Of a stretch of 64,000 nucleotides of DNA, positions 8,154 through 36,646 are shown in pieces. The notes under the pieces are model-generated. The model worked only from the letters and a program-made list of their open reading frames with translations. It did not search any database and was not told the DNA's origin. Position 1 is the stretch's first letter. Every line of letters begins with the position of its first letter. Origin of the DNA: an uncultured Gammaproteobacteria bacterium (lineage in GTDB: Bacteria > Patescibacteriota > Patescibacteriia > Patescibacteriales > GWC2-42-12); the NCBI GenBank assembly GCA_964467155.1, contig CAYXNZ010000005.1, positions 2,059 to 66,058 on the forward strand. The letters run 5' to 3'. Position numbers and translations under genes: made by a program.

Positions 8154-8723
8154 TTAAATTATTATTTTGCCAAAATGATTATCACTATCAATACCAGCAG
8201 CATTAGCTTCATCTGTGTCAATATGCATAGCTGGTCTATAGTCTTCTCTGACCCTAACCACAACATTTTCAAATATTAAGTCTCTAACACCATCAACATC
8301 AACTTTGACTCTGCTGTTATCTTTTACGCCAAGCTTGCTAGCGGTTTTTGGATCCAAATGGATGTGACGCAGAGCAATAATCACACCTTCGTTCAGTGTT
8401 ACCTCGCCTTTTGGACCAACTATTTTTATACTAGCTGATCCACTTAAATCCCCTGATTCACAGACAGGAGGATTAACACCAAGTTTACAGGCTTCTGTTT
8501 TCGAAATTTCAATTTGAGTTTTATCACGACAAGGACCTAAAACTCTTACTTTTTCTATTTTTCCCTCTGGACCAACAAGGGAAACTGTTTCCTCAGCTGC
8601 AAACTGCCTAGGCTGTGAAAGGTCTTTATATTTTTTGAGTTCATAATCTGCACCAAAAAGTTTTTCCAAATCTTCTTTTGACAAATGTATATGGCGTGCT
8701 GATATTTCAATTGGAATTCTCAT
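8154..8723 (-). CDS. pduL: Phosphate propanoyl/acetyl-transferase PduL
   Basis: Two PduL half-domains with the signature ISARHIHLS and IIALRHIHLD. Length of 189 aa is typical. ATGA overlap with the upstream kinase gene. Confidence 0.85.
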   Translation of the reverse strand: MRIPIEISARHIHLSKEDLEKLFGADYELKKYKDLSQPRQFAAEETVSLVGPEGKIEKVRVLGPCRDKTQIEISKTEACKLGVNPPVCESGDLSGSASIKIVGPKGEVTLNEGVIIALRHIHLDPKTASKLGVKDNSRVKVDVDGVRDLIFENVVVRVREDYRPAMHIDTDEANAAGIDSDNHFGKIII

Positions 8724-9703
8724 AAAACATTTTCTTTATTTAATAATCCATTTTGTGCACCCTGTTGACTGACAACAGACGCTGAATTTTTTGCACCTAA
8801 AATCAATGATTTTTTTATATCACCGTCAAATAATTCTAATCCAGTAACAAAAGATGAATTAAAAGCGTCCCCTACTCCAGTTGTATCTATTCTTTTAGTC
8901 TCTTTAATAATCGCTTGATGATAAAATTTACAACCATCATATGCGTCTGCGCCATACTTTCCGTTAGTAATAACTACTATTTTAGAGCCCCATGATTGCA
9001 AAATTGATAATAAATTTTTTATATTATTTAGATAATCTCTGGATTTTAATTTATTCTTTTTATCCGATAGCACCAACTCTATAGCTTCATCTTTGTTCAA
9101 CATTAATACGTTAGTTTTTTTTATAAACTTTTTAATAATCTGACAACCAGCATCCAGCTGAACATGTCCTGGATTCCAAGCGATTTTAATATCTTTCAAA
9201 GAAAATAATTTTTTTAACAATTCTCCCCAATCACCACTCAAGGAAGTCAAATAAATCCATTTAGTTTTTTTCAATATTTGTAAATCATAATTTGTAATCT
9301 GTAGTTGGCTATTTGCTGCCCGATTAGAAAAAACAATATGTTCATTCTTTTGCCCGACTAGCAAAAAAGAAAAACCACTTTCATAATCTTTTAATTTTTT
9401 AATTAACTTTACGTCTACTTTTTGTTTTTTAAGATTATTTATGATATTTTTTCCCCTATCATCTCGGCCAACTGCTAGTAGACTACCCACTTTAAAACCT
9501 AATTTAGAAAAGCAAACTGCCGTATTAGCTGCACCACCGCCAAATGTGCTGTGAGCACGATTAATTTTCATTTTTGCACCATATTCAAAAGCCAATAATT
9601 TCTGCCTCAAAATATCCTTTTTATTGTTTATTAAAACGCCGTCGTTGGTATAAAAAGTAATATCTTCGGTTGCGCCACCAATAGTTATAAAATCATATTC
9701 CAT
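8720..9703 (-). CDS. PfkB-family carbohydrate kinase (ribokinase-like)
   Basis: N-terminal GGA.N motif (TFGGGAANTAV) and the C-terminal PfkB signature DTTGVGDAFNSSF. Confidence 0.8.
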   Translation of the reverse strand: MEYDFITIGGATEDITFYTNDGVLINNKKDILRQKLLAFEYGAKMKINRAHSTFGGGAANTAVCFSKLGFKVGSLLAVGRDDRGKNIINNLKKQKVDVKLIKKLKDYESGFSFLLVGQKNEHIVFSNRAANSQLQITNYDLQILKKTKWIYLTSLSGDWGELLKKLFSLKDIKIAWNPGHVQLDAGCQIIKKFIKKTNVLMLNKDEAIELVLSDKKNKLKSRDYLNNIKNLLSILQSWGSKIVVITNGKYGADAYDGCKFYHQAIIKETKRIDTTGVGDAFNSSFVTGLELFDGDIKKSLILGAKNSASVVSQQGAQNGLLNKENVL

Positions 9704-9756
9704 AATTATTTTTTATTTTTTATCTTCTTATATTATAACACAAAGTAAACTATAAA

Positions 9757-9785
9757 TAAAAACATCTCAAGTGAGATGTTTTTTC
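9757..9785. terminator. Rho-independent terminator (bidirectional shape)
   Basis: aaaaacatctca-ag-tgagatgtttttt, a 9-bp stem flanked by A and T runs, downstream of the 9808-10740 gene. Confidence 0.6.
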
Positions 9786-9807
9786 TAAAAAAATAAATAG
9801 TATTTAC

Positions 9808-10740
9808 TTATCTTAACTGCCAAATTTGCTTGTCTAATATATTTTTTTGTTCTTCGGTGATCAAATAGATATTATCGCTATCAGCACGTTTAGCATAATA
9901 AAATCCGCTATCATTTTTATTGCCAATCATAATCGTATTACTAAAGTCATCACCAGATACTTCAATAATAATCAAATGTTTCTCTAATCCAGTTTTCTCA
10001 AAATCCTGTTCTGGAATCATTATTGAATATAAACTTGATATCATATTAGTTGTTTCTCTTATTTTTTCTTCTGAGACTGTAAAGTCATACGGCAAAACTC
10101 CTGTCCAAATTTCATTTTGTTTTTCGATAGTAAATTCACGATTTGGATACTGAAATCTTATTTTATTAATTTTATCCTGATCAAAAGAAAAAATCATTAA
10201 ATCACGCCAATCAGTTCGAGCAAATATATTTTTTAATAATACTTTCACGGAACAAACTTTTTCTGAATCAGTTAAACTTAAATAGTTAGAAGAATAATCA
10301 CTACTAATTTTTCCTACAAAAAAACTACTGAGTAAATCATCGTCAAAATACACTTTTAATTCAATTGTTTCTTTATCTAAGCCAAACTCTGATTGACGAT
10401 CCTTGTCTTTGCTTACTAAATCAAAATTGTTTTCTTTTATCTGAGTTAATTTATTTAATAGTTCCTTCACTCTTATCTGGTCAGCATAAAAATCTTTTGT
10501 ATTATCAATTTTCCATTTAGTAATAATATCACCATTGACTGCTTTATCTTGTTTTAATAAAACGGTAACCTTATTATCTTGTTTGATTTCTATTTTATTA
10601 ATTTGATTAATATCTACTTCTGATAAAAAATTATCTGAACTGAAAATATCTGAATACCATTTATTAATCGGCAATTTATAAATTAACGCTACTACTAACA
10701 AAATTATTAAAACTAAAAACAGTCGAAATGTTTTACTCAT
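9808..10740 (-). CDS. Membrane-anchored DUF4340-like protein
   Basis: 310-aa ORF with an N-terminal TM. The pattern INKIEIKQDNKVTVLLKQ...WKIDNTKDFYADQIRVKELLNKL resembles DUF4340 repeats (by eye). Confidence 0.5.
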   Translation of the reverse strand: MSKTFRLFLVLIILLVVALIYKLPINKWYSDIFSSDNFLSEVDINQINKIEIKQDNKVTVLLKQDKAVNGDIITKWKIDNTKDFYADQIRVKELLNKLTQIKENNFDLVSKDKDRQSEFGLDKETIELKVYFDDDLLSSFFVGKISSDYSSNYLSLTDSEKVCSVKVLLKNIFARTDWRDLMIFSFDQDKINKIRFQYPNREFTIEKQNEIWTGVLPYDFTVSEEKIRETTNMISSLYSIMIPEQDFEKTGLEKHLIIIEVSGDDFSNTIMIGNKNDSGFYYAKRADSDNIYLITEEQKNILDKQIWQLR

Positions 10741-10744
10741 AATT

Positions 10745-11011
10745 TTATTTATCTAAATTTTCCTTGATAGTTTTTACTAATTCTTCTTTATTTTGAAGAC
10801 CAACTAAACGTAATATTTCTTTATCCTCTTTATCTAAAAAGATAAAGGTTGGAATACCTTCAACATTATATTTTTCCATAGTTTCTTTACTGTCATCAGC
10901 TTCATGAAATTCAGTTTTTAATTTAGGCATTTCTTGCTCAATTTCTATGAACATAGGTTTCATAATAGCACACTCCTTACACCACGTAGCTCCAAATTTT
11001 AAAATTTTCAT
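10745..11011 (-). CDS. Thioredoxin-fold protein
   Basis: 88 aa with a WCKEC (WCxxC) active-site motif at the usual position and thioredoxin-like spacing (..GIPTFIF..). Confidence 0.75.
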   Translation of the reverse strand: MKILKFGATWCKECAIMKPMFIEIEQEMPKLKTEFHEADDSKETMEKYNVEGIPTFIFLDKEDKEILRLVGLQNKEELVKTIKENLDK

Positions 11012-11136
11012 AGATTTTAAAAAATTAATTTATTAATATTATTATTCAAATATAAATTACAGCAATTGAGCAAAAATAGTCATAAAAAAATTCGCAAAAT
11101 AATACGAATTCTTTTATTTAAATATGAGACTAATTA

Positions 11137-12261
11137 CTATTCTTTAAATTCATCCAATGTTACCACTCTAATTATTACCTTATCACCTCGTCTGATTTTT
11201 AAACCGATTTTGTCGCCTGGTTTGTATTTTTGTATTACGGATAATAGAGTATTTTTACCTTCTATTTTTATCGCGTTAATTTCCATCACAATATCTCCTT
11301 CTTCTATACCACCTTTTTGTGCTGGAGAATCAGACAACACCGCTGGTAAATCTAATCTATCACCACGACTTATCCAAGCGCCAATATTGATCGGCAAATC
11401 ATAATCTAGAGCAATTTGTGGAGTTAGCATAAAATAACGAATACCGAGACGAGTTCTAACTATTCGTCCAATTTCTTTTACACTATTAATTACCGGACGA
11501 GCATCATTGATTGGGATAGCAAAACCGATTGACGAACCAGCTTCATCGATGGCTACGTTAATACCAACTATTTTACCTTCAAGATTAATTAATGGTCCAC
11601 CAGAATTACCAAGATTAATTTCTGCATCAGTTTGGATGACGTTATCAAAAGATTCAGCATAGCCTGACTGGTCTGAAGCGACCAACTTTCTGCCTAAACC
11701 ACTAACAATACCCTTGGTTACGCTATTTTGATATCGACCCAAAGCGTTACCTATCGTCATAACCGTTGATCCAAGCTCTAAATTGTCGCTATTACCTAGC
11801 TCAACATAAGGCAAATCTTTATCAAATATTTTCAAAATTGCTAAATCATTTAGCGGGTCTTTACCGATTAATTGAGCATAATATTGTTTTCCAGAATTTA
11901 ACAAGATCCTGTATTCAGCAGTTTTTTCTTGCCCAGCGCTAACTACGTGTTTATTGGTTAGTATTAACCCATCAGAAGAAATAATAAAACCGGTTCCCCT
12001 GCCCTTCTCAATTTTTTTATCTTGGCTTATTTGCTGTCCAGTTGATAAATTAATTGTAAAATGTTCTTGTTGATCATAAACAATAATACTAACTACTGAT
12101 GGTATTACTTTTTTTATTGCTCTGATTGTTGCTTCCTGATCGTCTAGACTCAAATCATCAGCCACTACAGTATTTATTGTTGAATAATAAAAACCGAATA
12201 CGCCCAAACCAACACTTAAACCTATAACAAAAATTAAACTAATAAATATAATTTTCTTCAT
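11137..12261 (-). CDS. htrA: HtrA/DegP-family serine protease with PDZ domain
   Basis: Catalytic triad contexts TNKHVV, DLAILKI and GNSGGPL, with a C-terminal PDZ-like region. The start is moved to the ATG at 12261 (MKKIIFISL signal/anchor), which removes the overlap with the upstream stop at 12266. Confidence 0.85.
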   Translation of the reverse strand: MKKIIFISLIFVIGLSVGLGVFGFYYSTINTVVADDLSLDDQEATIRAIKKVIPSVVSIIVYDQQEHFTINLSTGQQISQDKKIEKGRGTGFIISSDGLILTNKHVVSAGQEKTAEYRILLNSGKQYYAQLIGKDPLNDLAILKIFDKDLPYVELGNSDNLELGSTVMTIGNALGRYQNSVTKGIVSGLGRKLVASDQSGYAESFDNVIQTDAEINLGNSGGPLINLEGKIVGINVAIDEAGSSIGFAIPINDARPVINSVKEIGRIVRTRLGIRYFMLTPQIALDYDLPINIGAWISRGDRLDLPAVLSDSPAQKGGIEEGDIVMEINAIKIEGKNTLLSVIQKYKPGDKIGLKIRRGDKVIIRVVTLDEFKE

Positions 12262-26418: not shown

Positions 26419-27126
26419 ATGATAAAATGTAAAAATATTTCAAAAGTTTATAAAACTGGTGACGTAAAAGTTGAAGTTTTAAAACAAATAAATTTTGATA
26501 TAGCCCAAGGTGAATTTGTAGCTATCATCGGTCCTTCTGGTTCTGGCAAGTCAACTTTGATGCATATACTAGGGGCTTTAGACAAACCGAGTGACGGTAA
26601 ATATTTTCTTGATAAAAAAGATATTTCAAAATTTTCTGAAGATGAATTAGCAGAAATCCGCTCGCGAAAAATTGGTTTTGTTTTTCAATCTTTCAATCTA
26701 TTATCTCGTTCCACTGTCTTGCGAAATGTAGTTATGCCATTACTGTATGACAATAAAATTTCAAAGGATAAGCGTCAACAAAGAGCAGAAAACGCTTTAA
26801 ATGCTGTTGGTTTAGAAAAAGAACGATGGCATCATTTATCAAACCAATTGTCTGGCGGACAAATGCAAAGAGTAGCTATCGCTAGAGCATTAGTCAACGA
26901 ACCAGACTTAATTTTGGCTGATGAACCAACTGGCAATCTTGACTCCAAGACTGGGGATATTGTTCTAGCTACTTTTAAAAAATTAAATAAAGAAAAAAAT
27001 CATACTGTTATTTTAATTACTCATGAGCGTTATGTAGCTGATCATGCCGACAGAGTTATCGAAATCAAAGACGGTCAAATTATTTCCGATAAAGAATCAA
27101 ATCATAATGGTCTAAAAAATAAATAA
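26419..27126 (+). CDS. ABC transporter ATP-binding protein (MacB/LolD-type)
   Basis: Walker [10 protein letters not shown], signature [15 protein letters not shown], Walker [10 protein letters not shown]. Confidence 0.9.
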
Positions 27127-27142
27127 TACCAATAAAATAAAT

Positions 27143-28369
27143 ATGCTATTCCCAGATCTATTACAAGAAACATATTTTGCTTTATCTGCCAATAAATCAC
27201 GTTCAGCTTTAACAATACTTGGAATTGTTATTGGTATTGGTTCGGTAATATCCATGATTTCTATTGGACAAGGTGCAGCTAAAAATATTGAAGAGAATAT
27301 ACAATCTCTCGGATCAAATCTATTGGTTGTCATGCCTGGTTCGCAAGGAGGTGTTGGTTCAATGGTTAAGGGTGGTATGGGTTCGGCTGATACATTAACC
27401 ATGGAAGATGCAGAAGCTATAAAAGAACAAATTGAATACGTAGAAGAAATAGCTCCCTATGTATCATCCAAAAAACAAGTTAAAACTACACAGGGTACTA
27501 ATACAAATACTAGTATTTATGGAGTAACCGAAGCATATACAACAGTAAAAAATATTGAAATTGAGCTAGGTAATTTTTTAAATACTGTCCAAGTTGATAA
27601 AAATTCTAAGGTAGCAGTAATTGGACCAACTACTCGAGACGATTTATTTGGTGAAACGATCGACCCAACTGGACAAAAAATTAGGATTGATAATTTAGAA
27701 TTTACAATTATTGGCATGACCACTAGTAAAGGTAGCTCTGGAATGGGTAATTCTGATGATTTAATCTATATCCCAATTTCCACTGCTCAACGATATTTAA
27801 CGGGAAATGATTCTGTGAGCACTATAAACATCCAAGTTGCAGATGCAGAAATGATGACAATTGTTGAAGAGAAAATTACCAATTTACTTTTAGATAGACA
27901 TAATATCGCTGATGCCACTCAAGCTGATTTTAGCATCATGAACCAAGCCAATATTATAAATACCATGACATCAGTCACGGACACTCTAACATTACTTCTT
28001 GGCGCTATTGCTGGAATTTCTCTTCTGGTTGGTGGTATCGGCATAATGAATATGATGCTAACTACAGTTACAGAAAGAACCAGAGAAATCGGTTTACGCA
28101 AATCACTAGGAGCCAAAAATAAAGATATTAGCACGCAATTCTTAGCTGAATCTATTGCCCTAACTTTTATCGGTGGGTTTATTGGCATTATATTCGGCTA
28201 TATTGCCTCTATTTTAATTACTAAATTTTCCGGCACTACCACAAGTATTAGTGCTAACTCAATTTATTTGGCTTTTGGAGTTTCAGCTGCTATCGGCATT
28301 ATCTTCGGCTATTACCCTGCTCGAAGGGCAGCTAAGCTGAACCCAATTGAAGCTTTAAGATATGAATAA
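27143..28369 (+). CDS. ABC transporter permease (MacB-type: periplasmic core domain + FtsX-like 4-TM domain)
   Basis: 408 aa with a TM1-large periplasmic domain-3 TM layout. The C-terminal FtsX-family motif is TERTREIGLRKSLGA. Confidence 0.85.
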   Translation: MLFPDLLQETYFALSANKSRSALTILGIVIGIGSVISMISIGQGAAKNIEENIQSLGSNLLVVMPGSQGGVGSMVKGGMGSADTLTMEDAEAIKEQIEYVEEIAPYVSSKKQVKTTQGTNTNTSIYGVTEAYTTVKNIEIELGNFLNTVQVDKNSKVAVIGPTTRDDLFGETIDPTGQKIRIDNLEFTIIGMTTSKGSSGMGNSDDLIYIPISTAQRYLTGNDSVSTINIQVADAEMMTIVEEKITNLLLDRHNIADATQADFSIMNQANIINTMTSVTDTLTLLLGAIAGISLLVGGIGIMNMMLTTVTERTREIGLRKSLGAKNKDISTQFLAESIALTFIGGFIGIIFGYIASILITKFSGTTTSISANSIYLAFGVSAAIGIIFGYYPARRAAKLNPIEALRYE

Positions 28370-29092: not shown

Positions 29093-29683
29093 ATGAATAA
29101 TACAATTTGGCGAATGAGTGCCGTTGCGTTAGCAATCGTCGCTACCACAGCAATCGTCGCTGGCGCAACATACGCTAAAGATAACGAAATGTTTGGCAAA
29201 AACCTTAGACCTAATTCAGAGAATATGCAAGCTGTTAAAACAGCCCTAGCTAACAACGATTATAGCGCTTGGCTAGAAGCTATCGATACAGACAGCCCAA
29301 CGGCAAAAAAAATTACTGAGGAAAATTTTCCTAAATTAATTGAAATCAATGAGCTACGCAACCAAATCAACGCATTAGAAGAAGAATTAAAATTAACTCC
29401 TAGTAGGGGCACTATGGATGCCAACCAACCAAATTTCCGCGGTCCGAGAGCAGGCGGAGATATGGCAAAAAACATGGAAGTCGCTAAAACAGCATTGGAT
29501 AATAATGATTACACTGCTTGGCTAGAAACTGTTGGCACAGATAGCCCAATAGCAGAAAAAATTACAGTAGAAAACTTCCCTAAATTAGTTGAAGCGCACA
29601 ATTTAATGCAGGCTGGTAATTTTGAAGAAGCCAGACAAATCAGAAGTGATCTAGGCTTAAATCAAGGACACAACAGAAAATAA
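29093..29683 (+). CDS. Secreted protein with two ~70-aa internal repeats (hypothetical)
   Basis: Signal peptide. The repeat ALANNDYSAWLEAIDTDSPTAKKITEENFPKLIEINEL recurs as ALDNNDYTAWLETVGTDSPIAEKITVENFPKLVEAHNL. Confidence 0.6.
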   Translation: MNNTIWRMSAVALAIVATTAIVAGATYAKDNEMFGKNLRPNSENMQAVKTALANNDYSAWLEAIDTDSPTAKKITEENFPKLIEINELRNQINALEEELKLTPSRGTMDANQPNFRGPRAGGDMAKNMEVAKTALDNNDYTAWLETVGTDSPIAEKITVENFPKLVEAHNLMQAGNFEEARQIRSDLGLNQGHNRK

Positions 29684-29790
29684 TATATTTAAAACAAGCA
29701 TGGAGATTCCATAAAAAAATCGCTAGGGTAAAACCGAAGCGGTTTTTTTATTTAGCTATATTTTTGTTGTTTTAACTCTTTTTTTATCTC

Positions 29791-29819
29791 TTGACAAATT
29801 CCTATTTTGGGTATATACT
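29791..29819 (+). promoter_or_regulatory. Canonical sigma-70 promoter of the DUF5320-DUF134-metal cluster
   Basis: TTGACA (29791-96), a 17-nt spacer, then TATACT (29814-19). It lies 28 nt upstream of the ATG at 29847. Confidence 0.6.
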
Positions 29820-29846: not shown

Positions 29847-30086
29847 ATGCCTGGATTTAATGGAACTGGCCCAAGAGGCACAGGAGCTGGCAGCGGTCGA
29901 GGTTTAGGACCTTGCGGAGCTGGTCAAGGACGTGGATTTTTTGGTCGCGGTTTTGGCAGAGGTGTTGGCCAATTTTTCGGAGGGAATTCCAATTCTAATG
30001 TAAGCAAAGAAGATCAATTGTCAGGACTTGAAGAAGAAAAGAAATACTTAGAGGAAGAAATTAACAGCCTCAAAGACAAAAAATAA
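29847..30086 (+). CDS. DUF5320-family small protein
   Basis: MPGFNGTGPRGTGAGSGRGLGPCGAG... Gly-rich N-terminus with a single Cys, followed by a C-terminal coiled coil, as in DUF5320. Confidence 0.7.
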   Translation: MPGFNGTGPRGTGAGSGRGLGPCGAGQGRGFFGRGFGRGVGQFFGGNSNSNVSKEDQLSGLEEEKKYLEEEINSLKDKK

Positions 30087-30092
30087 ACCACT

Positions 30093-30128
30093 CCCCTCCT
30101 TCACGGGAGGGGTGTTGTGTTTATTTTT
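30093..30128 (+). terminator. Terminator/attenuator-like hairpin between the DUF5320 and DUF134 genes
   Basis: cccctcc-ttcacg-ggagggg followed by the T-rich tgttgtgtttattttt. Confidence 0.45.
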
Positions 30129-30149: not shown

Positions 30150-30425
30150 ATGCCTAGACCAAGAATGTGTCGGCGCATCAATTTTCGCCCCAAAGCTAGT
30201 ATTTTTAAACCTCAAGGTGTTCCCTTGAGATTTTTGGATTATATAACCGTCACCCATGAAGAAATGGAATCATTGCGTTTGAAATATATTGAAAACCTTG
30301 ATCAGGAAACATCCGCCAAACAAATGAAAACATCACAAAGTACTTTTCAACGAATTCTTGCGTCAGCGAACAAAAAAACAGCTAAAGCATTGATTGAAGG
30401 GAAAGCTATTAGCATGGTTAAATAA
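30150..30425 (+). CDS. DUF134 (UPF0251) predicted DNA-binding protein
   Basis: MPRPRMCRRINFRPKASIFKPQGVP...EEMESLRLKYIENLDQETSAKQMKTSQSTFQRIL matches the DUF134 N-terminal MPRP..CR..FKP motif and HTH. Confidence 0.8.
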   Translation: MPRPRMCRRINFRPKASIFKPQGVPLRFLDYITVTHEEMESLRLKYIENLDQETSAKQMKTSQSTFQRILASANKKTAKALIEGKAISMVK

Positions 30426-30444: not shown

Positions 30445-31677
30445 ATGCTAAACGCGAAAAATCTTTCATTATTATCAGCTTTAACTAATTTAGTTTTAGC
30501 TTTAGCGAAATTTTTTATCGGTTTTCTAACCCATAGCATGGCTATTATGGCCGATGCTCTTCATTCCAGTCTTGATGTAATTTCTTCTCTGGTTGCTTAT
30601 GTTGGAATAAAAATATCAGGCAAACCAGCTGATAGTCAACATCCCTATGGAAAGGAAAAATATGAAAGCCTAGCTAGTTTTATAATTGTTTTATTGCTTT
30701 TTTTATCGGCTGGCTGGATTCTTTTTGAGGCAGTTGACAATATTTTAAAAAAAGAACACATAGCTATTTTCAGTTTTTGGGGAATCGGTTTAATCGCCTT
30801 GACGATTGTTATAAACGAAATAATGGCCAGACTTAAGTTTACTGTTGGTAATAAATATTCGTCTCTAGCTTTAGTATCTGACGCCGAACATTCAAGAGCT
30901 GACGCCATATCTTCTGTTGGCGTGTTAATCGGATTATTTTTTATAAAATTTTACCCGCTAGCTGATAGTATTCTAGCGATTTTGGTTTCATTTTATATTT
31001 TTTATGAGGCTTACCACTTAAGCAGAGAAGCCATTGACTCTTTAGTTGATAAAGCTAATCCTGAGTTGGAGGAAAAAATCAGAAAATTCTTAGAAAAAAA
31101 TAATTTTAAATTTTCCGAAATAAAAACAAGAAAAATTAGCGCTAATAGTTTAGCAGAAATATCCCTGCTCTGTGATGCCAAGGCAAAAATAGAAGAAATA
31201 ACTTTAATGACAGAAAAGCTTGAAAAAAAATTAATTGACTATATCCCAAATCTTAAACAAGTAACCATAAAAGTAAAATCTCATAAATATTCAAGGGGTT
31301 CTATCCGACCAGGTTTTGGCAGAAGATTGAGGTTTTTAGACGCTGGGCAACTACGAGCACCCTTAGAAAAAGGCCAACGTATACTAATCCCTTTGATTGA
31401 TAATAAAATAGCTGACAAATTCGGTGTAGCCGACTATTTATTAATAGAAATTGATTCTGACAAAAAAATCATCAAAAAACAAAAGATAACCAACCCTTAT
31501 TATGACATAGAAGCAGGCGCCCATGGATCTAAATTTATAAAATCAATTTCTGCCGACAAAATAATAGCCAAACATATAGGCGATAGTGCCAAGGCTAATC
31601 TAAAAGCACAAAAAATTGAAATAGAAATAGTTGGAGAAGATAAAAACATAGAAACTATCTTGTCTAGATTTAAATAA
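30445..31677 (+). CDS. Cation diffusion facilitator (CDF) transporter fused to a C-terminal NifB/NifX-like (FeMo-cofactor-binding fold) domain
   Basis: CDF motifs HSMAIMADALHSSLDVISS and DAEHSRADAISS in a 6-TM core, plus the cytoplasmic CDF domain. The last ~105 aa (RILIPLIDNKIADKFGVADYLLIEID...IIAKHIGDSAKANLKAQKIEIEIV) follow the NifX-like pattern. The start is set to the ATG at 30445 rather than the TTG at 30394. Confidence 0.75.
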   Translation: MLNAKNLSLLSALTNLVLALAKFFIGFLTHSMAIMADALHSSLDVISSLVAYVGIKISGKPADSQHPYGKEKYESLASFIIVLLLFLSAGWILFEAVDNILKKEHIAIFSFWGIGLIALTIVINEIMARLKFTVGNKYSSLALVSDAEHSRADAISSVGVLIGLFFIKFYPLADSILAILVSFYIFYEAYHLSREAIDSLVDKANPELEEKIRKFLEKNNFKFSEIKTRKISANSLAEISLLCDAKAKIEEITLMTEKLEKKLIDYIPNLKQVTIKVKSHKYSRGSIRPGFGRRLRFLDAGQLRAPLEKGQRILIPLIDNKIADKFGVADYLLIEIDSDKKIIKKQKITNPYYDIEAGAHGSKFIKSISADKIIAKHIGDSAKANLKAQKIEIEIVGEDKNIETILSRFK

Positions 31678-31692
31678 TATAATTTATAATTT

Positions 31693-32067
31693 ATGAAAAT
31701 TTGCATTTCTTCAACCGGACCAAACATTTCCGACCAAGTAGACCCTCGCTTTGGCAGATGCCAATATTTTTTAATTTTTGACACTGAAACAAAAAAAACT
31801 GAAGCTATCTCTAATCAAGGTGTCAGACAAGGCAGTGGCGCCGGCGTCAGTGCGGGCCAATTAGTAGCTGACAAAAACGTTGAAGCTATTATTACTGGGA
31901 ATATCGGTCCAAACGCCTTTACGGTTCTCGGGCAAGTCAAAGTAAAAATATATGCCGGTGTTTTTGATTTATCTTGCGAAGAAGCATTAAAAAAATTCCA
32001 AGCCAATGATTTAACTGAAACTTCTGGAGCAACTGGACCTGGTCAACATGAACACGAACCAGAATAA
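31693..32067 (+). CDS. NifB/NifX-family (dinitrogenase FeMo-cofactor-binding fold) stand-alone protein
   Basis: MKICISSTGPN..VDPRFGRCQYFLIFDTE...AIITGNIGPNAFTVLGQVKVKIYAG is the typical family pattern. Confidence 0.8.
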   Translation: MKICISSTGPNISDQVDPRFGRCQYFLIFDTETKKTEAISNQGVRQGSGAGVSAGQLVADKNVEAIITGNIGPNAFTVLGQVKVKIYAGVFDLSCEEALKKFQANDLTETSGATGPGQHEHEPE

Positions 32068-32104: not shown

Positions 32105-32929
32105 ATGAAAAAAATTGCAATTACTGGCGGTAAAGGTGGCACGGGAAAATCTACCTTTGCCGTTCTCTTTGCCAATAAACTTATAAAAAAAGATAAAAAA
32201 ATCTTTTTGGTTGATTGTGATATTGAATGTCCCAATCTTCATCTCTTAATTGGCAAAAGAATTGGCAAAGCACAAAAAAAAGTTTATACCCAAAAACCAG
32301 TTATTGATAAAAATAAATGCCAAAAATGTGGCTTATGTGTTAAGAATTGTCGCAACAATGCAATTTTCATGCCCTCTGGAAAATATCCCATTATTTTGGA
32401 ACATTTATGTTCAAGTTGTGGTGCTTGTTGGCTAACCTGTCCACATGAAGCCATAAAAACCAAGAAAGAAGAAATTGGTAAAATCCATTTAAATAAAATA
32501 AGTCCAAAATTAACTTTAATCACCGGCGTAGCTAAACCAGCGCTTGAAGATACTTCAGCTGTCGTCAAACAACTCAAGGATTTTACTTTAGATTTAGCTC
32601 GCAAAAACAAAATTGATTATATAATTTACGACACAGCTGCCGGCACACATTGTCCAGTTGTCGTTGCATTGCTTGATAATGATTTAACTTATGTTGTAAC
32701 AGAACCAACTCCTTTGGGAGCACATGATCTTGATCTTATTTTACAATTAATAAAAAAAATTAAAATAAAGAGCAAAATTGTTTTAAACCAAGCTGATTTA
32801 GGAAAAACTGATTCCACTCTTAAAATATTAAAAAAACACAAAATAGCAAAAATTGATATAAAAATCCCCTACTCAAAAAAAATAGTAAAACATTATTCCA
32901 CAGGTAGTATGCTTAACTGTTCAATATGA
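32105..32929 (+). CDS. MinD/ParA-type P-loop ATPase with inserted 2x[4Fe-4S] ferredoxin domain
   Basis: Deviant Walker A GGKGGTGKST. Two CxxCxxCxxxC motifs (CQKCGLCVKNC, CSSCGACWLTC). Confidence 0.85.
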   Translation: MKKIAITGGKGGTGKSTFAVLFANKLIKKDKKIFLVDCDIECPNLHLLIGKRIGKAQKKVYTQKPVIDKNKCQKCGLCVKNCRNNAIFMPSGKYPIILEHLCSSCGACWLTCPHEAIKTKKEEIGKIHLNKISPKLTLITGVAKPALEDTSAVVKQLKDFTLDLARKNKIDYIIYDTAAGTHCPVVVALLDNDLTYVVTEPTPLGAHDLDLILQLIKKIKIKSKIVLNQADLGKTDSTLKILKKHKIAKIDIKIPYSKKIVKHYSTGSMLNCSI

Positions 32930-33516
32930 AACAAAGTCCCCAGCTAAAAAAAATAAAAGATGAAGTCATCTCTTGTCAAAAATGCCCGCTTTATAAAACC
33001 AGAAATATGCCGGTTATCGGACAAGGCAATCATGAAGCTGATATTATGTTTATCGGAGAAGCGCCGGGTGCTAATGAAGACCGAACAGGCTTCCCTTTTT
33101 GTGGTCGTGCTGGCGACATTCTTGATCGTTTGTTGACTTCTGCCAATCTCAAAAGAGAAGATATCTATATTGCCAATATATTAAAATGTCGTCCACCAGC
33201 TAATCGTAATCCGGATAAAAATGAAATTAAAGCCTGCTCTCTATATCTTCAAAAACAAATTGAATCAATCAAACCAAAACTAATTTGTACCTTAGGTAAT
33301 TTTGCCACTGCTTTCATATTTGAGCAATATGGTCTAAACGAAAAAATACAAGGCATAGGCAAGCTTCATGGATTATTGCATAAAACAAATGGAATATCTA
33401 TTATGCCTCTTTATCATCCAGCTGTTGCTACCTATAACGCAAATATGATTGAACTTTTGATTGAAGATTTTAAAAAAATTAAACTACGCACCGATCTTGT
33501 CGGTGGAATTAGTTAA
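32926..33516 (+). CDS. Uracil-DNA glycosylase, family 4 (4Fe-4S type)
   Basis: CQKCPL...GEAPGANEDRTGFPFCGRAG...C..PP.NR ... LYHPA motifs. ATGA overlap with the upstream ATPase gene. Confidence 0.85.
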   Translation: MKQSPQLKKIKDEVISCQKCPLYKTRNMPVIGQGNHEADIMFIGEAPGANEDRTGFPFCGRAGDILDRLLTSANLKREDIYIANILKCRPPANRNPDKNEIKACSLYLQKQIESIKPKLICTLGNFATAFIFEQYGLNEKIQGIGKLHGLLHKTNGISIMPLYHPAVATYNANMIELLIEDFKKIKLRTDLVGGIS

Positions 33517-33692: not shown

Positions 33693-34430
33693 ATGAGTAT
33701 TTTATCATGGATTATTCTGAGTACTTCGGCCATGAGCCTGATAGCTTTAGTTGGCGTAGTAACGATATTTTTAAATGAACGATTACTTAAAAAAATAATC
33801 TTGCCACTAGTAGCCTTTTCAGCTGGTGCCTTGATGGGTGGCGCTTTTTTACATATGCTACCTGAAGCAATTAATTCTATTGGCCCGAATATTGGAATTT
33901 TTGTTTGGTTAATAGTCGGTTTTTCTCTATTTCTATTACTTGAACAATTCATAAATTGGCATCATTGTCACAAACTACCATCAGAACATAAACGACCAGT
34001 TACTTATTTAATATTGATTGCCGACGGTATTCATAATTTTATCGGTGGTTTAGCTATCGCTGGAGCCTTTCTGGTTGATATAAAAGTCGGCATTATTACT
34101 TGGTTAGCCTGCGCTGCCCATGAAGTACCGCAAGAATTAGGTGATTTTGGAATACTAGTACATGGTGGCTGGAAAAGATCAACCGCTTTAATATTTAATT
34201 TTTTATCAGCCTTAACTATAATACTAGGAGGATTAACCGCTTATTTTATTTCTTTTAAAATAAATGTAGCATTTTTATTACCCTTTGCTGCTGGTAATTT
34301 TATTTATATCGCTGCTTCTGACTTGATTCCAGAAATAAAACATAGTAAAAATATAAAAAACGCCATAATTAATTTTTCTTTTTTCGCCTTGGGTATTTTA
34401 TTACTCTTGGCGGTAAGGTTAATCGCATAA
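33693..34430 (+). CDS. ZIP-family divalent metal transporter (ZupT/GufA-like)
   Basis: HNFIGGLAIAGAF and AHEVPQELGDFGIL signature helices, with ~8 TM. Confidence 0.85.
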   Translation: MSILSWIILSTSAMSLIALVGVVTIFLNERLLKKIILPLVAFSAGALMGGAFLHMLPEAINSIGPNIGIFVWLIVGFSLFLLLEQFINWHHCHKLPSEHKRPVTYLILIADGIHNFIGGLAIAGAFLVDIKVGIITWLACAAHEVPQELGDFGILVHGGWKRSTALIFNFLSALTIILGGLTAYFISFKINVAFLLPFAAGNFIYIAASDLIPEIKHSKNIKNAIINFSFFALGILLLLAVRLIA

Positions 34431-34437
34431 AATCAAA

Positions 34438-35331
34438 ATGAAAAATAAACCATTCAAAATAGCTGTTGCTTCCGGCAAAGGTGGTGTGGGTAAAACTATG
34501 CTCGCGTCGTCTCTAGCTATACTTTTTTCCCGAGCAAAGAAAAAAATAGTTGCCTGTGATTGTGATGTCGACGCACCAAATTTATCGATTTGGCTAAATG
34601 AAACAGGAAAGCCAGAAAAGACTTCAAAATTATCAACTCTTTATAAACCAGAAATTGATCGGAAGAAATGTACAAATTGCGGACTCTGTGCAAGCAATTG
34701 TCGGTTTAACGCTCTGTCTATTTCAAAAAATAAGCTTAAATTTAATTATTTTCTATGTGAAGGTTGTGGCGTCTGCGAATTAATTTGTCCAAACAAAGCC
34801 ATCACATTAAAACCTGTAAATAATGGGGAGATAAAAATAAGAAAAACCAAATACGGCTTTCCTCTAATTAGCGGTCATCTTTTGCCAGGAGAATCCAATT
34901 CTGGCAAAGTGGTAGTTGAGACAAAAAACAAGGCAGAAAAATATAATTATGATATAATGATTATAGATTCAGCTCCAGGCACAGGTTGCCCAGTAATAGC
35001 TTCTCTGCAAGATTCAAATCTTGTTGTTTTAATAACAGAACCAACTCCATCTGCTTTTTCTGATTTAAAAAAAGTCATACAAACTGTTGAATATTTTAAA
35101 TTGCCATATTTAGTCGTAATAAATAAATGGGATATTAATAAAAAATTAAGTAAAAAAATTGAAGCTGAATACAATAATAAACTGCTAGGTAAAATTTCCT
35201 ACGATCAAAAAATTTTTCAAGCAATTTCTGAATTAATACCAATACCGGAAAGCAATCTGCAAGCTAAAAATGAAATAGATTTAATTTTTAATAAAATAAA
35301 AGAAAAAATAAAACAGAATCAATATGTTTAA
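34438..35331 (+). CDS. MinD/ParA-type P-loop ATPase with inserted 2x[4Fe-4S] ferredoxin domain (second paralogue)
   Basis: Deviant Walker A SGKGGVGKT, plus CTNCGLCASNC and CEGCGVCELIC. Confidence 0.85.
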   Translation: MKNKPFKIAVASGKGGVGKTMLASSLAILFSRAKKKIVACDCDVDAPNLSIWLNETGKPEKTSKLSTLYKPEIDRKKCTNCGLCASNCRFNALSISKNKLKFNYFLCEGCGVCELICPNKAITLKPVNNGEIKIRKTKYGFPLISGHLLPGESNSGKVVVETKNKAEKYNYDIMIIDSAPGTGCPVIASLQDSNLVVLITEPTPSAFSDLKKVIQTVEYFKLPYLVVINKWDINKKLSKKIEAEYNNKLLGKISYDQKIFQAISELIPIPESNLQAKNEIDLIFNKIKEKIKQNQYV

Positions 35332-36646
35332 AAAACTCTTTACTATTGTTTTTTTTGTTGGGTTATTTTTTGTTGGTAATTTTTCTTTGGCCTCAGAAGG
35401 CACAACTGAAATAAACTTTTTTTATAGCATAACTTGTCCTCATTGCGCTAGAGAACAAGTCTTTCTTGGTGATTTAGAGGCTAAATACCAGAATATTACT
35501 ATCAACCGTTGGGATATAGCTGAAAACCAAGAATTAATTAGGCAATTCTATCAAAATGCCAACATCCCTACTAATTACTGGGGCTTAACACCGGTTACTT
35601 TTATCGACCAAAAAGTATTCCTCGGCTTTAGCGAAACACAGACTGGCCCGGCAATTGAACAATATTTGTCGCAAATATTCAAATCTTGCCCAGAAGAAGA
35701 TGAATTAGATAATGCTAATATAAATAATACTAATAAAGAAAATAATACAGCAGGAGAAGAAGCTGATGAAAACGAGAAAGAAACAGTCGCCAATGAAGAA
35801 AATAATAATAATCAAGACAATGAAGACTGTGTTGTACCAGAGAAAGACATGTCGCCAGAAATCGCCCAAACAATTAAAAATGTTAAAATTCCGTTAATCG
35901 GCGAAGTTGATCTGTCTAATCTCTCCATCATGTCATTAACTGTAATTATTGGCCTTTTAGATGGTTTTAATGCTTGCGCTATGGCCGCGCTCGGATTTTT
36001 GTTAGCAATTTTGGTGGCCACTGGCGTCAGAAAAAGAATTTTTTGGATTGGTGGTACCTTTATTTTTATATCCGGTTTAATGTATTTTTTGTTTATTTCT
36101 GCCTGGCTTAATCTGTTTCTATTTGTCGGTTATTTAAAAATTATTTCTTTGATTATTGGCGTTTTGATTATTGCATTTTCTTTATTCCTACTCAAAGATT
36201 ATTTTTCTGGCATAGTTTGCAAACTATGTAATATTGATCCAAAAAATACTAGTATCTTAACTGGTTGGCAAAGAAAACTATTCTCTCAAATGGACAAGCT
36301 GATTTCCGCAGAAATGGCTTTGCCGATTACACTTCTTGGCGTAGCGATAGTGGCTGCTGGCATAAATTTGATTGAATTGGTTTGTTCGCTGGGCTTTCCA
36401 ATGGTTTACGCTAAAATATTGGCTTCATCTGATCTTTCCGCTTTTTCCTATTATGGTTATTTACTTCTCTATATATTTTTCTACATGCTGGACGATTTTA
36501 TTATATTTCTGGTTGCCGTTATGACATTAAGATTAACAAATGTCGGCGACAAATATCTAAAAGCAATTAAGCTTATCAGCGGTGTAGTCCTCTTGATAAT
36601 GGGAATAATCATGTTATTCAGACCAGAATTACTATCATTGTCATAA
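35324..36646 (+). CDS. Thioredoxin/glutaredoxin-like periplasmic domain fused to a polytopic membrane domain (possible thiol-disulfide or metal-handling protein)
   Basis: Signal/anchor, then a CPHC motif in FFYSITCPHCAREQVFL, an N/E-rich linker, and ~6 TM helices containing LDGFNACAM. It overlaps the upstream gene by 8 nt. Confidence 0.55.
   Translation: MFKKLFTIVFFVGLFFVGNFSLASEGTTEINFFYSITCPHCAREQVFLGDLEAKYQNITINRWDIAENQELIRQFYQNANIPTNYWGLTPVTFIDQKVFLGFSETQTGPAIEQYLSQIFKSCPEEDELDNANINNTNKENNTAGEEADENEKETVANEENNNNQDNEDCVVPEKDMSPEIAQTIKNVKIPLIGEVDLSNLSIMSLTVIIGLLDGFNACAMAALGFLLAILVATGVRKRIFWIGGTFIFISGLMYFLFISAWLNLFLFVGYLKIISLIIGVLIIAFSLFLLKDYFSGIVCKLCNIDPKNTSILTGWQRKLFSQMDKLISAEMALPITLLGVAIVAAGINLIELVCSLGFPMVYAKILASSDLSAFSYYGYLLLYIFFYMLDDFIIFLVAVMTLRLTNVGDKYLKAIKLISGVVLLIMGIIMLFRPELLSLS

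Follow-up and report, generated by a model that had tools for sequence, protein, structure and literature searches.

A cation diffusion facilitator transporter with a fused NifX-like domain, encoded in a conserved ORP/IssA-like gene cluster of Patescibacteria and archaea

In the 64,000-nt stretch of DNA analysed here (contig CAYXNZ010000005.1; hereafter the window), a single gene encodes a cation diffusion facilitator (CDF) transporter whose chain continues into a NifX-like domain (Nitro_FeMo-Co, IPR003731). This architecture spans hundreds of database clusters from Patescibacteria, DPANN archaea, Thermoplasmatota, Bathyarchaeota and Asgard archaea. The fusion gene is part of a conserved operon-encoded module reminiscent of the ORP complex of Desulfovibrio and of IssA, an iron-sulfur storage system. 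Tentatively, we suggest that the NifX-like domain serves in the cytoplasm as a sensor or docking module and would couple transport to an IssA/ORP-like metal-sulfide system.

Architecture of the fusion protein

The open reading frame (ORF; ATG start, TAA stop) specifies four parts in order: the CDF core, a cytoplasmic domain, a linker and the C-terminal NifX-like domain (Table 1). The peptide strings quoted in an earlier, sequence-only reading of this gene occur in its translation. An alternative TTG start at 30394 would add 17 residues; every homologue starts at the ATG instead.

By its profile matches, its six helices with transport site A and its cytoplasmic domain, the protein is a CDF family member. 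Pfam Cation_efflux (PF01545) matches residues 9-201 (E-value 3.4e-49; 167.8 bits vs. a cut-off of 26.6), and the NCBIfam CDF model TIGR01297 gives 217.6 bits (cut-off 82.35). The full-length AlphaFold model (predicted local distance difference test, pLDDT, 78) places an alpha-beta cytoplasmic domain after six long helices, predicts the C-terminal domain with confidence, and superposes on YiiP and on ZnT7, ZnT8 and ZnT1 (Foldseek; alignments of about 280 columns). The sequence-only reading had described a CDF core with six transmembrane (TM) helices, metal-site motifs and a cytoplasmic domain; both profiles, the model and the alignment with YiiP agree with that description. Transport site A is formed by H40 and D44 in TM2 and by H149 and D153 in TM5, aligned with D45/D49 and H153/D157 of YiiP. 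Among 76 homologues, D44, H149 and D153 are present in all and H40 in 74. An H-D/H-D site A is the classical signature of zinc-type CDFs.

The modelled alpha-beta-beta-alpha-beta fold of the cytoplasmic domain spans residues 206-277. ZT_dimer (PF16916) matches this region weakly in the window protein (residues 207-277; 17.2 bits vs. a cut-off of 26.7), but it is recorded for most homologues and exceeds its cut-off in many. Thus, of the three Pfam families suggested beforehand, Cation_efflux is found clearly, Nitro_FeMo-Co marginally, and ZT_dimer above its cut-off in homologues only. Three histidines of the regulatory site C of YiiP align, in a by-eye reading, with S224, S240 and approximately residue 252 and are not conserved in the fusion, which would leave room for a replacement sensor.

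No NCBIfam equivalog cut-off was reached. The scores were 157.8 bits vs. 350 for MamM (NF033615), 155.3 vs. 350 for MamB (NF033616), 139 vs. 500 for MntE and 103 vs. 420 for FieF. MamM and MamB give the best equivalog-type scores, all sub-threshold, and the fusion protein is not MamB or MamM in the strict sense.

The linker is about 27 residues long and predicted to be disordered, with a model pLDDT below 50 at residues 290-305. Its composition is distinctive throughout the family: R/K make up 24.6% and G 15.4%, whereas the core has 10.7% and 5.9%, and the net charge averages +4.5.

The C-terminal part is a member of the IPR003731 (NifX-like) family, both by profile and by its ribonuclease-H-like alpha/beta fold. 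Nitro_FeMo-Co (PF02579) matches residues 319-409 with 26.9 bits when the whole protein is scanned and with 30.5 bits when the domain is scanned by itself (cut-off 26.3), and all 32 relatives scanned with this model match it. A profile built from 49 homologous C-termini retrieved MTH1175 (1.7e-7), TM1816 (3e-7) and PH0822 from the PDB sequences, with E-values from 2e-7 to 2e-6. A single-sequence search of the domain against the PDB sequences gave no match, but the profile and fold searches succeeded. The AlphaFold model of residues 285-410 (pLDDT 84; predicted template modelling score 0.75) was compared with the PDB using Foldseek, and the 11 best matches all belong to the IPR003731 family (E < 0.001; template modelling scores, TM-scores, of 0.55-0.66). 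Members matched at this threshold include PH0822, TM1816, TA1041, the NifX on NifEN, NafY and ORP. The single-chain fusion of a CDF with a NifX-family domain, as first proposed from the letters of the DNA, is therefore confirmed by the Nitro_FeMo-Co match, the profile-to-PDB search and the fold search.

The fused domain was also said to resemble the stand-alone NifX-like protein encoded downstream, and the two are indeed paralogues (27% identity; E-value 7e-6, BLASTP). The gap between the two genes is 15 nt, and not 16 nt as first given. The label "NifX/NifB-type cofactor-binding" holds as far as the NifX family is concerned but is too specific: no nif genes are present in the annotated contigs of about 17 kb that hold the locus, nor in related loci, and the nearest structures are MTH1175, TM1816 and PH0822. 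The fused domain belongs to the non-nitrogenase MTH1175/IssA/ORP branch. Across the 76 homologues, G327 and N350 are invariant, and Y331, D335, G361, F364, K366, G379, A382 and L386 are conserved in at least 90%; near-invariant positions within the domain number a dozen. These residues map to the cleft motifs that define the family (F-G, N-P-Y, G and I-G-x-x-A).

Authenticity and distribution of the fusion

An identical 410-aa protein, with identical neighbours, is found on contigs of four independent assemblies from different samples. Full-length homologues from Patescibacteria form about 76 clusters; they are 385-435 aa long and show 37-85% identity at 95-100% coverage. The fusion is confirmed as a real gene under selection, and not an artefact, because of this identical protein in four assemblies and these many full-length homologues. 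The same recurrence rules out a frameshift or assembly join at about 31330, which had been named as a possible artefact. Using the single motif DAEHSRAD, a scan of species-representative genomes identified 57 loci, about 50 of them with the full-length fusion. Among its carriers are two complete genomes of Nealsonbacteria (CP179888 and CP179889), each about 640 kb in size. The source names, the hosts and a low G+C content (30-42%) all indicate the Patescibacteria (Candidate Phyla Radiation, CPR; hereafter the CPR type).

Searching 1.84 billion representatives with a profile of the fused domain gave 232 matches. Among the 32 long matches, 27 are CDF-NifX fusions, about half of which form a second, distant group, hereafter the archaeal type. 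These proteins are about 24% identical to the window protein, carry the NifX-like domain directly after the cytoplasmic domain, without the linker, and retain the canonical H-F-G-R-A motif in that domain. With an archaeal-type member as the query, 544 clusters were found at E <= 1e-20, and all of the 120 clusters listed carry PF01545, PF16916 and PF02579. Where a source is named, it is Thermoplasmata, Aenigmarchaeota, Woesearchaeota, Bathyarchaeota or Portnoybacteria, and one protein is from Hodarchaeota. The survey of databases that the sequence-only reading had suggested thus reveals an architecture that is not rare, with hundreds of clusters.

Site A of the archaeal type (P0168, P0275-P0393) reads H-D / E-(D/H). 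The His of TM5 is replaced by Glu in 111 of these 120 proteins, and the last ligand is Asp in 74 and His in 41. This different site suggests that the metal preference of the archaeal type may differ from that of the CPR-type H-D/H-D group.

In databases, CDF-NifX fusions are annotated only as "CDF family transporter" or "hypothetical". Within the library searched, our full-text literature searches found no paper describing such a fusion, in agreement with the earlier statement that no described example was known. The literature on DUF134, DUF5320 and COG1433 yielded nothing relevant except papers on ORP, IssA and methanogens. The fusion is abundant in databases yet functionally undescribed.

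Genomic context

We took a census of neighbouring genes at 33 well-flanked loci with purpose-built, domain-restricted hidden Markov models. DUF5320 was present at 30 loci, MinD-type ATPases with a ferredoxin domain (MinD/Fer4) at 30, free NifX-like genes at at least 25 (one or two genes per locus), DUF134 at 24, uracil-DNA glycosylase (UDG) at 17 and ZIP at 7. The typical CPR order, on the same strand, is DUF5320 (one or two genes), free NifX-like, CDF-NifX, MinD/Fer4, sometimes UDG, MinD/Fer4 and DUF134. In the window, the order on one strand is DUF5320, DUF134, fusion, free NifX-like, MinD/Fer4, UDG, ZIP, MinD/Fer4 and a thioredoxin-like gene. Archaeal-type fusions occupy the same gene set as the CPR operon. 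At the archaeal-type locus L066, the gene set is followed by FeoA and FeoB (8461-11465) and by a DtxR-type iron repressor. FeoA/FeoB adjoin the cluster downstream in two unrelated lineages, namely L066 and L068 (5692-7865), the latter near a sister CDF.

Table 1. Features of the fusion gene and its surroundings (positions in the window unless a locus is named)
Feature	Position	Strand	Basis
Promoter-like TTGACA-17-TATACT, before the first gene of the cluster	29791..29819	+	Consensus match only
DUF5320 protein, 79 aa, Gly/Arg/Phe-rich N-terminus and coiled-coil tail	29847..30086	+	PF17253, E 3e-15
DUF134 (UPF0251), predicted small DNA-binding regulator	30150..30425	+	PF02001, E 2.6e-18
Fusion ORF, CDF transporter and NifX-like domain	30445..31677	+	ATG start, TAA stop, 410 aa
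CDF transmembrane core, aa 1-201, six helices	30445..31047	+	Pfam, NCBIfam, model, YiiP alignment
CDF cytoplasmic domain, aa 206-283, alpha-beta-beta-alpha-beta	31060..31293	+	Model; weak ZT_dimer
Linker, aa 284-310, SRGSIRPGFGRRLRFLDAGQLRAPLEKG	31294..31374	+	Cationic, Gly-rich, predicted disordered
C-terminal NifX-like (Nitro_FeMo-Co / IPR003731) domain, aa 311-410, and stop codon	31375..31677	+	Pfam, profile, fold
Free-standing NifX-like protein, 124 aa	31693..32067	+	Nitro_FeMo-Co, 81.3 bits
MinD/ParA-type P-loop ATPase with inserted 2x[4Fe-4S] ferredoxin domain (Orp3/Orp4-like)	32105..32929	+	Pfam CbiA, ParA, Fer4
Family-4 UDG	32926..33516	+	TIGR00758, 201.8 bits vs. cut-off 125.3
ZIP (ZupT-like) divalent-metal importer	33693..34430	+	Pfam Zip, E 5e-39; weak ZupT match
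Second MinD/ParA-ferredoxin ATPase	34438..35331	+	Pfam / NCBIfam
Thioredoxin-like (CPHC) and multi-TM protein, 440 aa	35324..36646	+	Sequence; membership of the system uncertain
Free Cys-rich protein (examples)	L007 6348-6563; L010 7275-7496; L066 3805-3987		Motif match

Several observations concern single genes of the cluster. The DUF134 protein also gives weak matches to sigma-70 region 4 and helix-turn-helix models. Family-4 UDGs are a [4Fe-4S]-containing class of enzymes. The UDG lies between the two MinD/ParA-ferredoxin genes, a position it holds at 17 of the 33 loci, and might be an iron-sulfur (Fe-S) client encoded within the operon. ZIP genes were additionally found near the CDFs of L062 and L070. 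The adjacency of FeoAB hints at iron as the relevant metal. Some free NifX-like proteins have a W/G/R-rich tail (…WHGWGGWRRGRRFF; L067 5657-6028 and L066 2752-3301), and the DUF5320 proteins of these two loci are extremely rich in W, Y, G, R and P, which fits the chemistry described for the thioferrate-binding tail of IssA.

At the downstream end, the ORF at 35324-36646 has no significant Pfam or NCBIfam match. Its N-terminal part has a thioredoxin-like CPHC motif, an acidic spacer rich in Asn and Glu comes next, and the C-terminal region is multi-TM. It also occurs in split form (a thioredoxin of 87-89 aa and a 399-aa protein) beside related CDFs at L068 and L070. Upstream, an ORF at 29093-29683 lies in the interval that separates a MacB-type ABC efflux system at 26419-28369 from the cluster. 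It encodes a secreted-looking protein of 196 aa with an internal duplication (…NNDYSAWLEAIDTDSPTAKKITEENFPKL… / …NNDYTAWLETVGTDSPIAEKITVENFPKL…) and a borderline DUF5752 match (24.8 bits vs. a cut-off of 23). A terminator-like site at 29730-29746, found by consensus match only, precedes the promoter-like site. Directly 3' of the DUF5320 gene, at 30093-30112, a hairpin rich in G+C (CCCCTCC...GGGAGGGG) with a T tract behind it, again a consensus match only, could attenuate transcription between DUF5320 and the remaining operon. Scans of the region for promoters and terminators gave site numbers not above those of shuffled sequence.

A second module on the same transporter

Sister CDFs without the NifX-like domain were also identified. 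They have the same R/G-rich linker, followed by a Cys-rich module of about 45 aa (GPxGxCxCPxCGxxxxHxRGxPCxxxxCPxC); examples are P0025, P0029, P0077, P0079, P0087 and the group P0091-P0101. This module belongs to no Pfam family and gives weak matches to zinc-ribbon models and to the DUF5320 N-terminus. It also exists as a free-standing protein of about 70 aa (range about 60-80 aa), with an RG-rich N-terminus and the Cys-rich motif, encoded just upstream of the free NifX-like gene. The free form was found at 31 of the examined loci that have a NifX-fused CDF or a contig-truncated copy, as well as at L066; the gene is absent from the window. The Cys-rich CDF variant occurs in the same type of operon (L068, L071). 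This alternative fusion and the operon context, neither of which the sequence-only reading had noted, give the best clues to function.

The C-terminus of the CDF is therefore joined to two different operon proteins, which, by the Rosetta-stone principle, argues that the transporter and the soluble proteins of the operon work in physical contact. In a neighbour-joining tree of the CDF core, which is indicative only (distance-based, midpoint-rooted, variants labelled by tail length), the Cys-rich and truncated variants are nested within the NifX-fused CPR clade, and unfused CDFs separate the archaeal-type fused clade from the CPR fused clade. From this topology, more than one origin or remodelling of the NifX fusion is probable. 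A strict co-loss of the NifX-like domain and the operon partners, considered from L012, L018 and L062, is only partly true. At L068 and L071, the Cys-rich-fused CDFs lie beside MinD/Fer4 genes, and at L071 also beside a free NifX-like gene.

Comparison with known systems

With YiiP/FieF, CzcD, ZnT and MamB/MamM, the fusion shares the six-helix core, the tetrahedral site A of TM2 and TM5 and the alpha-beta cytoplasmic domain, and its H-D/H-D site is of the ZnT/CzcD type. Compared with these known CDFs, it adds a C-terminal extension of about 125 aa (linker and NifX-like domain), and it lacks three site-C histidines of YiiP.

The nearest precedent for the fusion event is MrpORP (Orp9, DVU2109) of the Desulfovibrio ORP complex, in which an IPR003731 domain is carried on the C-terminus of an Mrp/NBP35 ATPase (PMC6345978). 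Both proteins join this domain to another ORP-type cluster component, and the C-terminus of the window protein aligns with positions 262-360 of the NCBIfam MrpORP profile. The partner is a membrane transporter here and a soluble Mrp/NBP35 ATPase there. The fused domain of MrpORP, for which a proline-rich TPPPHXPGXXP motif is reported, holds an Fe-S cluster that transfers poorly, and fusions of this kind evolved on several occasions (PMC6345978). The Desulfovibrio complex comprises a pair of paralogous MinD-like ATPases carrying 2x[4Fe-4S] motifs, an unfused IPR003731 protein and the IPR003731 fusion (PMC6345978). The cluster in the window has the same gene composition, as known here from the genes alone, with Orp3/Orp4-like MinD-ferredoxin ATPases (32105-32929 and 34438-35331), an Orp8-like free domain (31693-32067) and the fusion. 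The predicted regulator gene is DUF134 in the window, whereas orp genes are described with sigma-54 regulation; a Mo-Cu cluster on the free domain is a further trait of the ORP complex.

IssA (PF2025) is a nanoparticle-forming thioferrate storage protein of Pyrococcus furiosus whose globular domain binds Fe and S; for its cationic, Gly-rich tail, a role in wrapping anionic thioferrate has been proposed (PMC5524996). In Methanococcus voltae, hereafter M. voltae, proteins of the IssA clade rise on FeS2, or pyrite (PMC8516115, PMC9431491). Like IssA, the fusion joins an IPR003731 globular domain to a disordered, cationic, Gly-rich segment, and IssA-like chemistry is also seen in the W/G/R-rich tails of the operon DUF5320 proteins and of some free NifX-like proteins. 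Unlike the C-terminal tail of IssA, the cationic segment of the fusion is N-terminal to the domain and not rich in aromatic residues, and the protein is embedded in the membrane.

The fold is that of NifX (9ian_F in NifEN, TM-score 0.57) and NafY (1p90, TM-score 0.55) according to Foldseek. In comparison with NifX, NafY and the C-terminal domain of NifB, the identity is only 11-14%, there is no nif context and the host genomes are very small; the fusion protein is not NifX/NafY sensu stricto. Finally, FmpB (DMR_41100) of Desulfovibrio magneticus carries a NifX/NifB-type domain on a magnetochrome/PDZ protein (PMC4287615). There too such a domain is part of a fusion, in a pathway of metal biomineralisation in which CDFs (MamB) act (PMC4287615), but it is not on the CDF itself, and the present hosts are not known as magnetotactic.

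Proposed function and alternative explanations

The gene product would be a dimeric divalent-metal/proton CDF antiporter exporting Fe(II) or Zn(II), which are the most likely substrate metals, and it would serve as the membrane component of the operon-encoded module. The ligand of the fused domain would be a metal-sulfide species or else the soluble paralogue, or a partner, in its loaded state. Through such binding, the opening of the dimeric transporter would become linked to how full the cytoplasmic metal-sulfur pool is. In canonical CDFs, site C of the cytoplasmic domain senses metal; the fused domain would have an analogous role and may replace that site. Recurrence, operon, alternative fusion, architecture, fold and transport-site residues are findings of the analysis; the ligand, the metal, the direction of coupling and the partners are what we infer. 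The sequence data fit both mechanisms put forward in the sequence-only reading, substrate hand-off and allosteric gating. We place the likelihood of the sensor or docking module a little below even.

Several points weigh against this sensor or docking role. The Nitro_FeMo-Co score of the CPR-type fused domain is only 0.6 bits over the cut-off, and the domain is divergent: its H-F-G-R-A motif is reduced to F-G, with the His and the Arg lost, conserved Cys are absent, and His360 is kept in 70% of the homologues. As judged from these residues, the CPR-type domain may bind no cluster and could be a protein-protein module only. The linker, cationic and Gly-rich, was considered as a full mimic of the IssA tail and rejected as such, its aromatics not being enriched. 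The structure models are of single chains, without inter-domain confidence values. One archaeal homologue, P0086, lies outside any such operon. The cues to the metal are split between zinc and iron. Moreover, CDFs usually move metal out of the cytoplasm, and it is not evident that a system for storage or biogenesis would need this.

The tethered domain might instead be a built-in metallochaperone, which takes metal from a soluble carrier or a metal-sulfide store to site A and would then resemble the metal-binding domains of P1B-type ATPases. Proteins of the NifX/NafY family carry and pass metal clusters, a paralogous soluble carrier is encoded next door, and the alternative fused module, rich in Cys and His, is a plausible metal binder. 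The fused NifX-like domain, however, is without conserved Cys and keeps His360 in only 70% of homologues. As for reach, the flexible linker of about 27 aa would allow the modelled domain to swing, but it is absent in the archaeal-type group, where the swing is limited. CDFs also take free cations through a cytoplasmic cavity, with no known need for a chaperone, as established from YiiP and ZnT structures. IssA reconstitutes ferredoxin clusters (PMC5524996), whereas the cluster on the fused domain of MrpORP is not efficiently transferred (PMC6345978). We regard such a hand-off of substrate as unlikely.

An equally low likelihood goes to a membrane anchor or scaffold, in which the domain and linker merely recruit the NifX-like, DUF5320 and MinD-ferredoxin proteins to the membrane and so fix the place of the ORP-like complex, and transport is independent of them. 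Two operon partners alternately fused to the same CDF C-terminus are what would be expected if co-localisation alone were selected, and the divergent ligand motif of the CPR-type domain fits a protein-protein role. In addition, MrpORP has a polar localisation, and the MinD-like Orp3/Orp4 have a C-terminal amphipathic helix of a type that in MinD was shown to bring about polar or membrane binding (PMC6345978). However, the invariant and near-invariant residues lie on the cleft motifs of the family, which points to a retained ligand site. Transport is also under selection in the same protein, because the residues of site A are strictly conserved, and a transporter is unnecessary for a simple anchor.

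More doubtful is a zinc exporter with an accessory zinc-sensing domain, for which the Fe-S-looking neighbours would be unrelated and merely co-located. The classical H-D/H-D site A and the ZIP/ZupT-like importers adjoining here and in several loci are on the side of zinc, and the alternative Cys-rich module weakly matches zinc-ribbon models. Nevertheless, the order of the NifX-like and MinD/Fer4 genes is kept across the CPR and archaeal types, at about 24% identity, which chance hardly explains. On the side of iron are also the FeoAB and DtxR-like genes at L066, FeoAB at L068, the Fe-S theme of the cluster and the highest, although sub-threshold, NCBIfam scores, which are to the iron transporters MamM and MamB and not to ZitB.

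An assembly chimera, a frameshift read-through or a nitrogenase-cofactor (FeMo-co) function would fit the marginal Pfam score and a Pfam family named after nitrogenase, but has almost no likelihood in view of the identical protein in four independent assemblies, the hundreds of homologous fusions, the absence of nif genes in contigs of about 17 kb, Nealsonbacteria hosts of about 640 kb and the non-nif nearest structures; the last and the lack of nif genes in the context rule out the nitrogenase link.

Beyond the sensor or docking role of the domain, the whole operon may be an unrecognised membrane-anchored machine that stores and delivers metal sulfide (thioferrate-like or Fe-S), a broader idea that we consider improbable at present. 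Its members would be DUF5320, the small Cys-rich protein, the NifX-like carriers, CDF-NifX, the two MinD-ferredoxin ATPases, the Fe-S glycosylase as a client and DUF134, with an IssA-like mineral pool that would either gate the CDF or be fed by it.

Significance

Ever since the first descriptions of the ORP complex and IssA, it has been unclear what the orphan cluster of NifX-like, MinD-ferredoxin, DUF134 and DUF5320 genes does in anaerobes, and the fusion is the first physical link between this cluster and a transporter. The operon context makes the orphan ORP/IssA-like cluster testable, and the hypothesis can be tested with recombinant protein. Because they are kept in Nealsonbacteria genomes of about 640 kb, these genes are probably important for the metal or iron-sulfur economy of their not-yet-culturable hosts. 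If the storage-and-delivery machine were real, Patescibacteria and DPANN archaea with reduced genomes may use it as a principal means of supplying iron-sulfur or of buffering iron. CDFs are a textbook family, regulated, on the current view, through their own cytoplasmic domain and through histidine-rich loops. A conserved and widespread CDF subgroup with a cluster-carrier-type domain or a Cys-rich module would represent a new principle of regulation or coupling.

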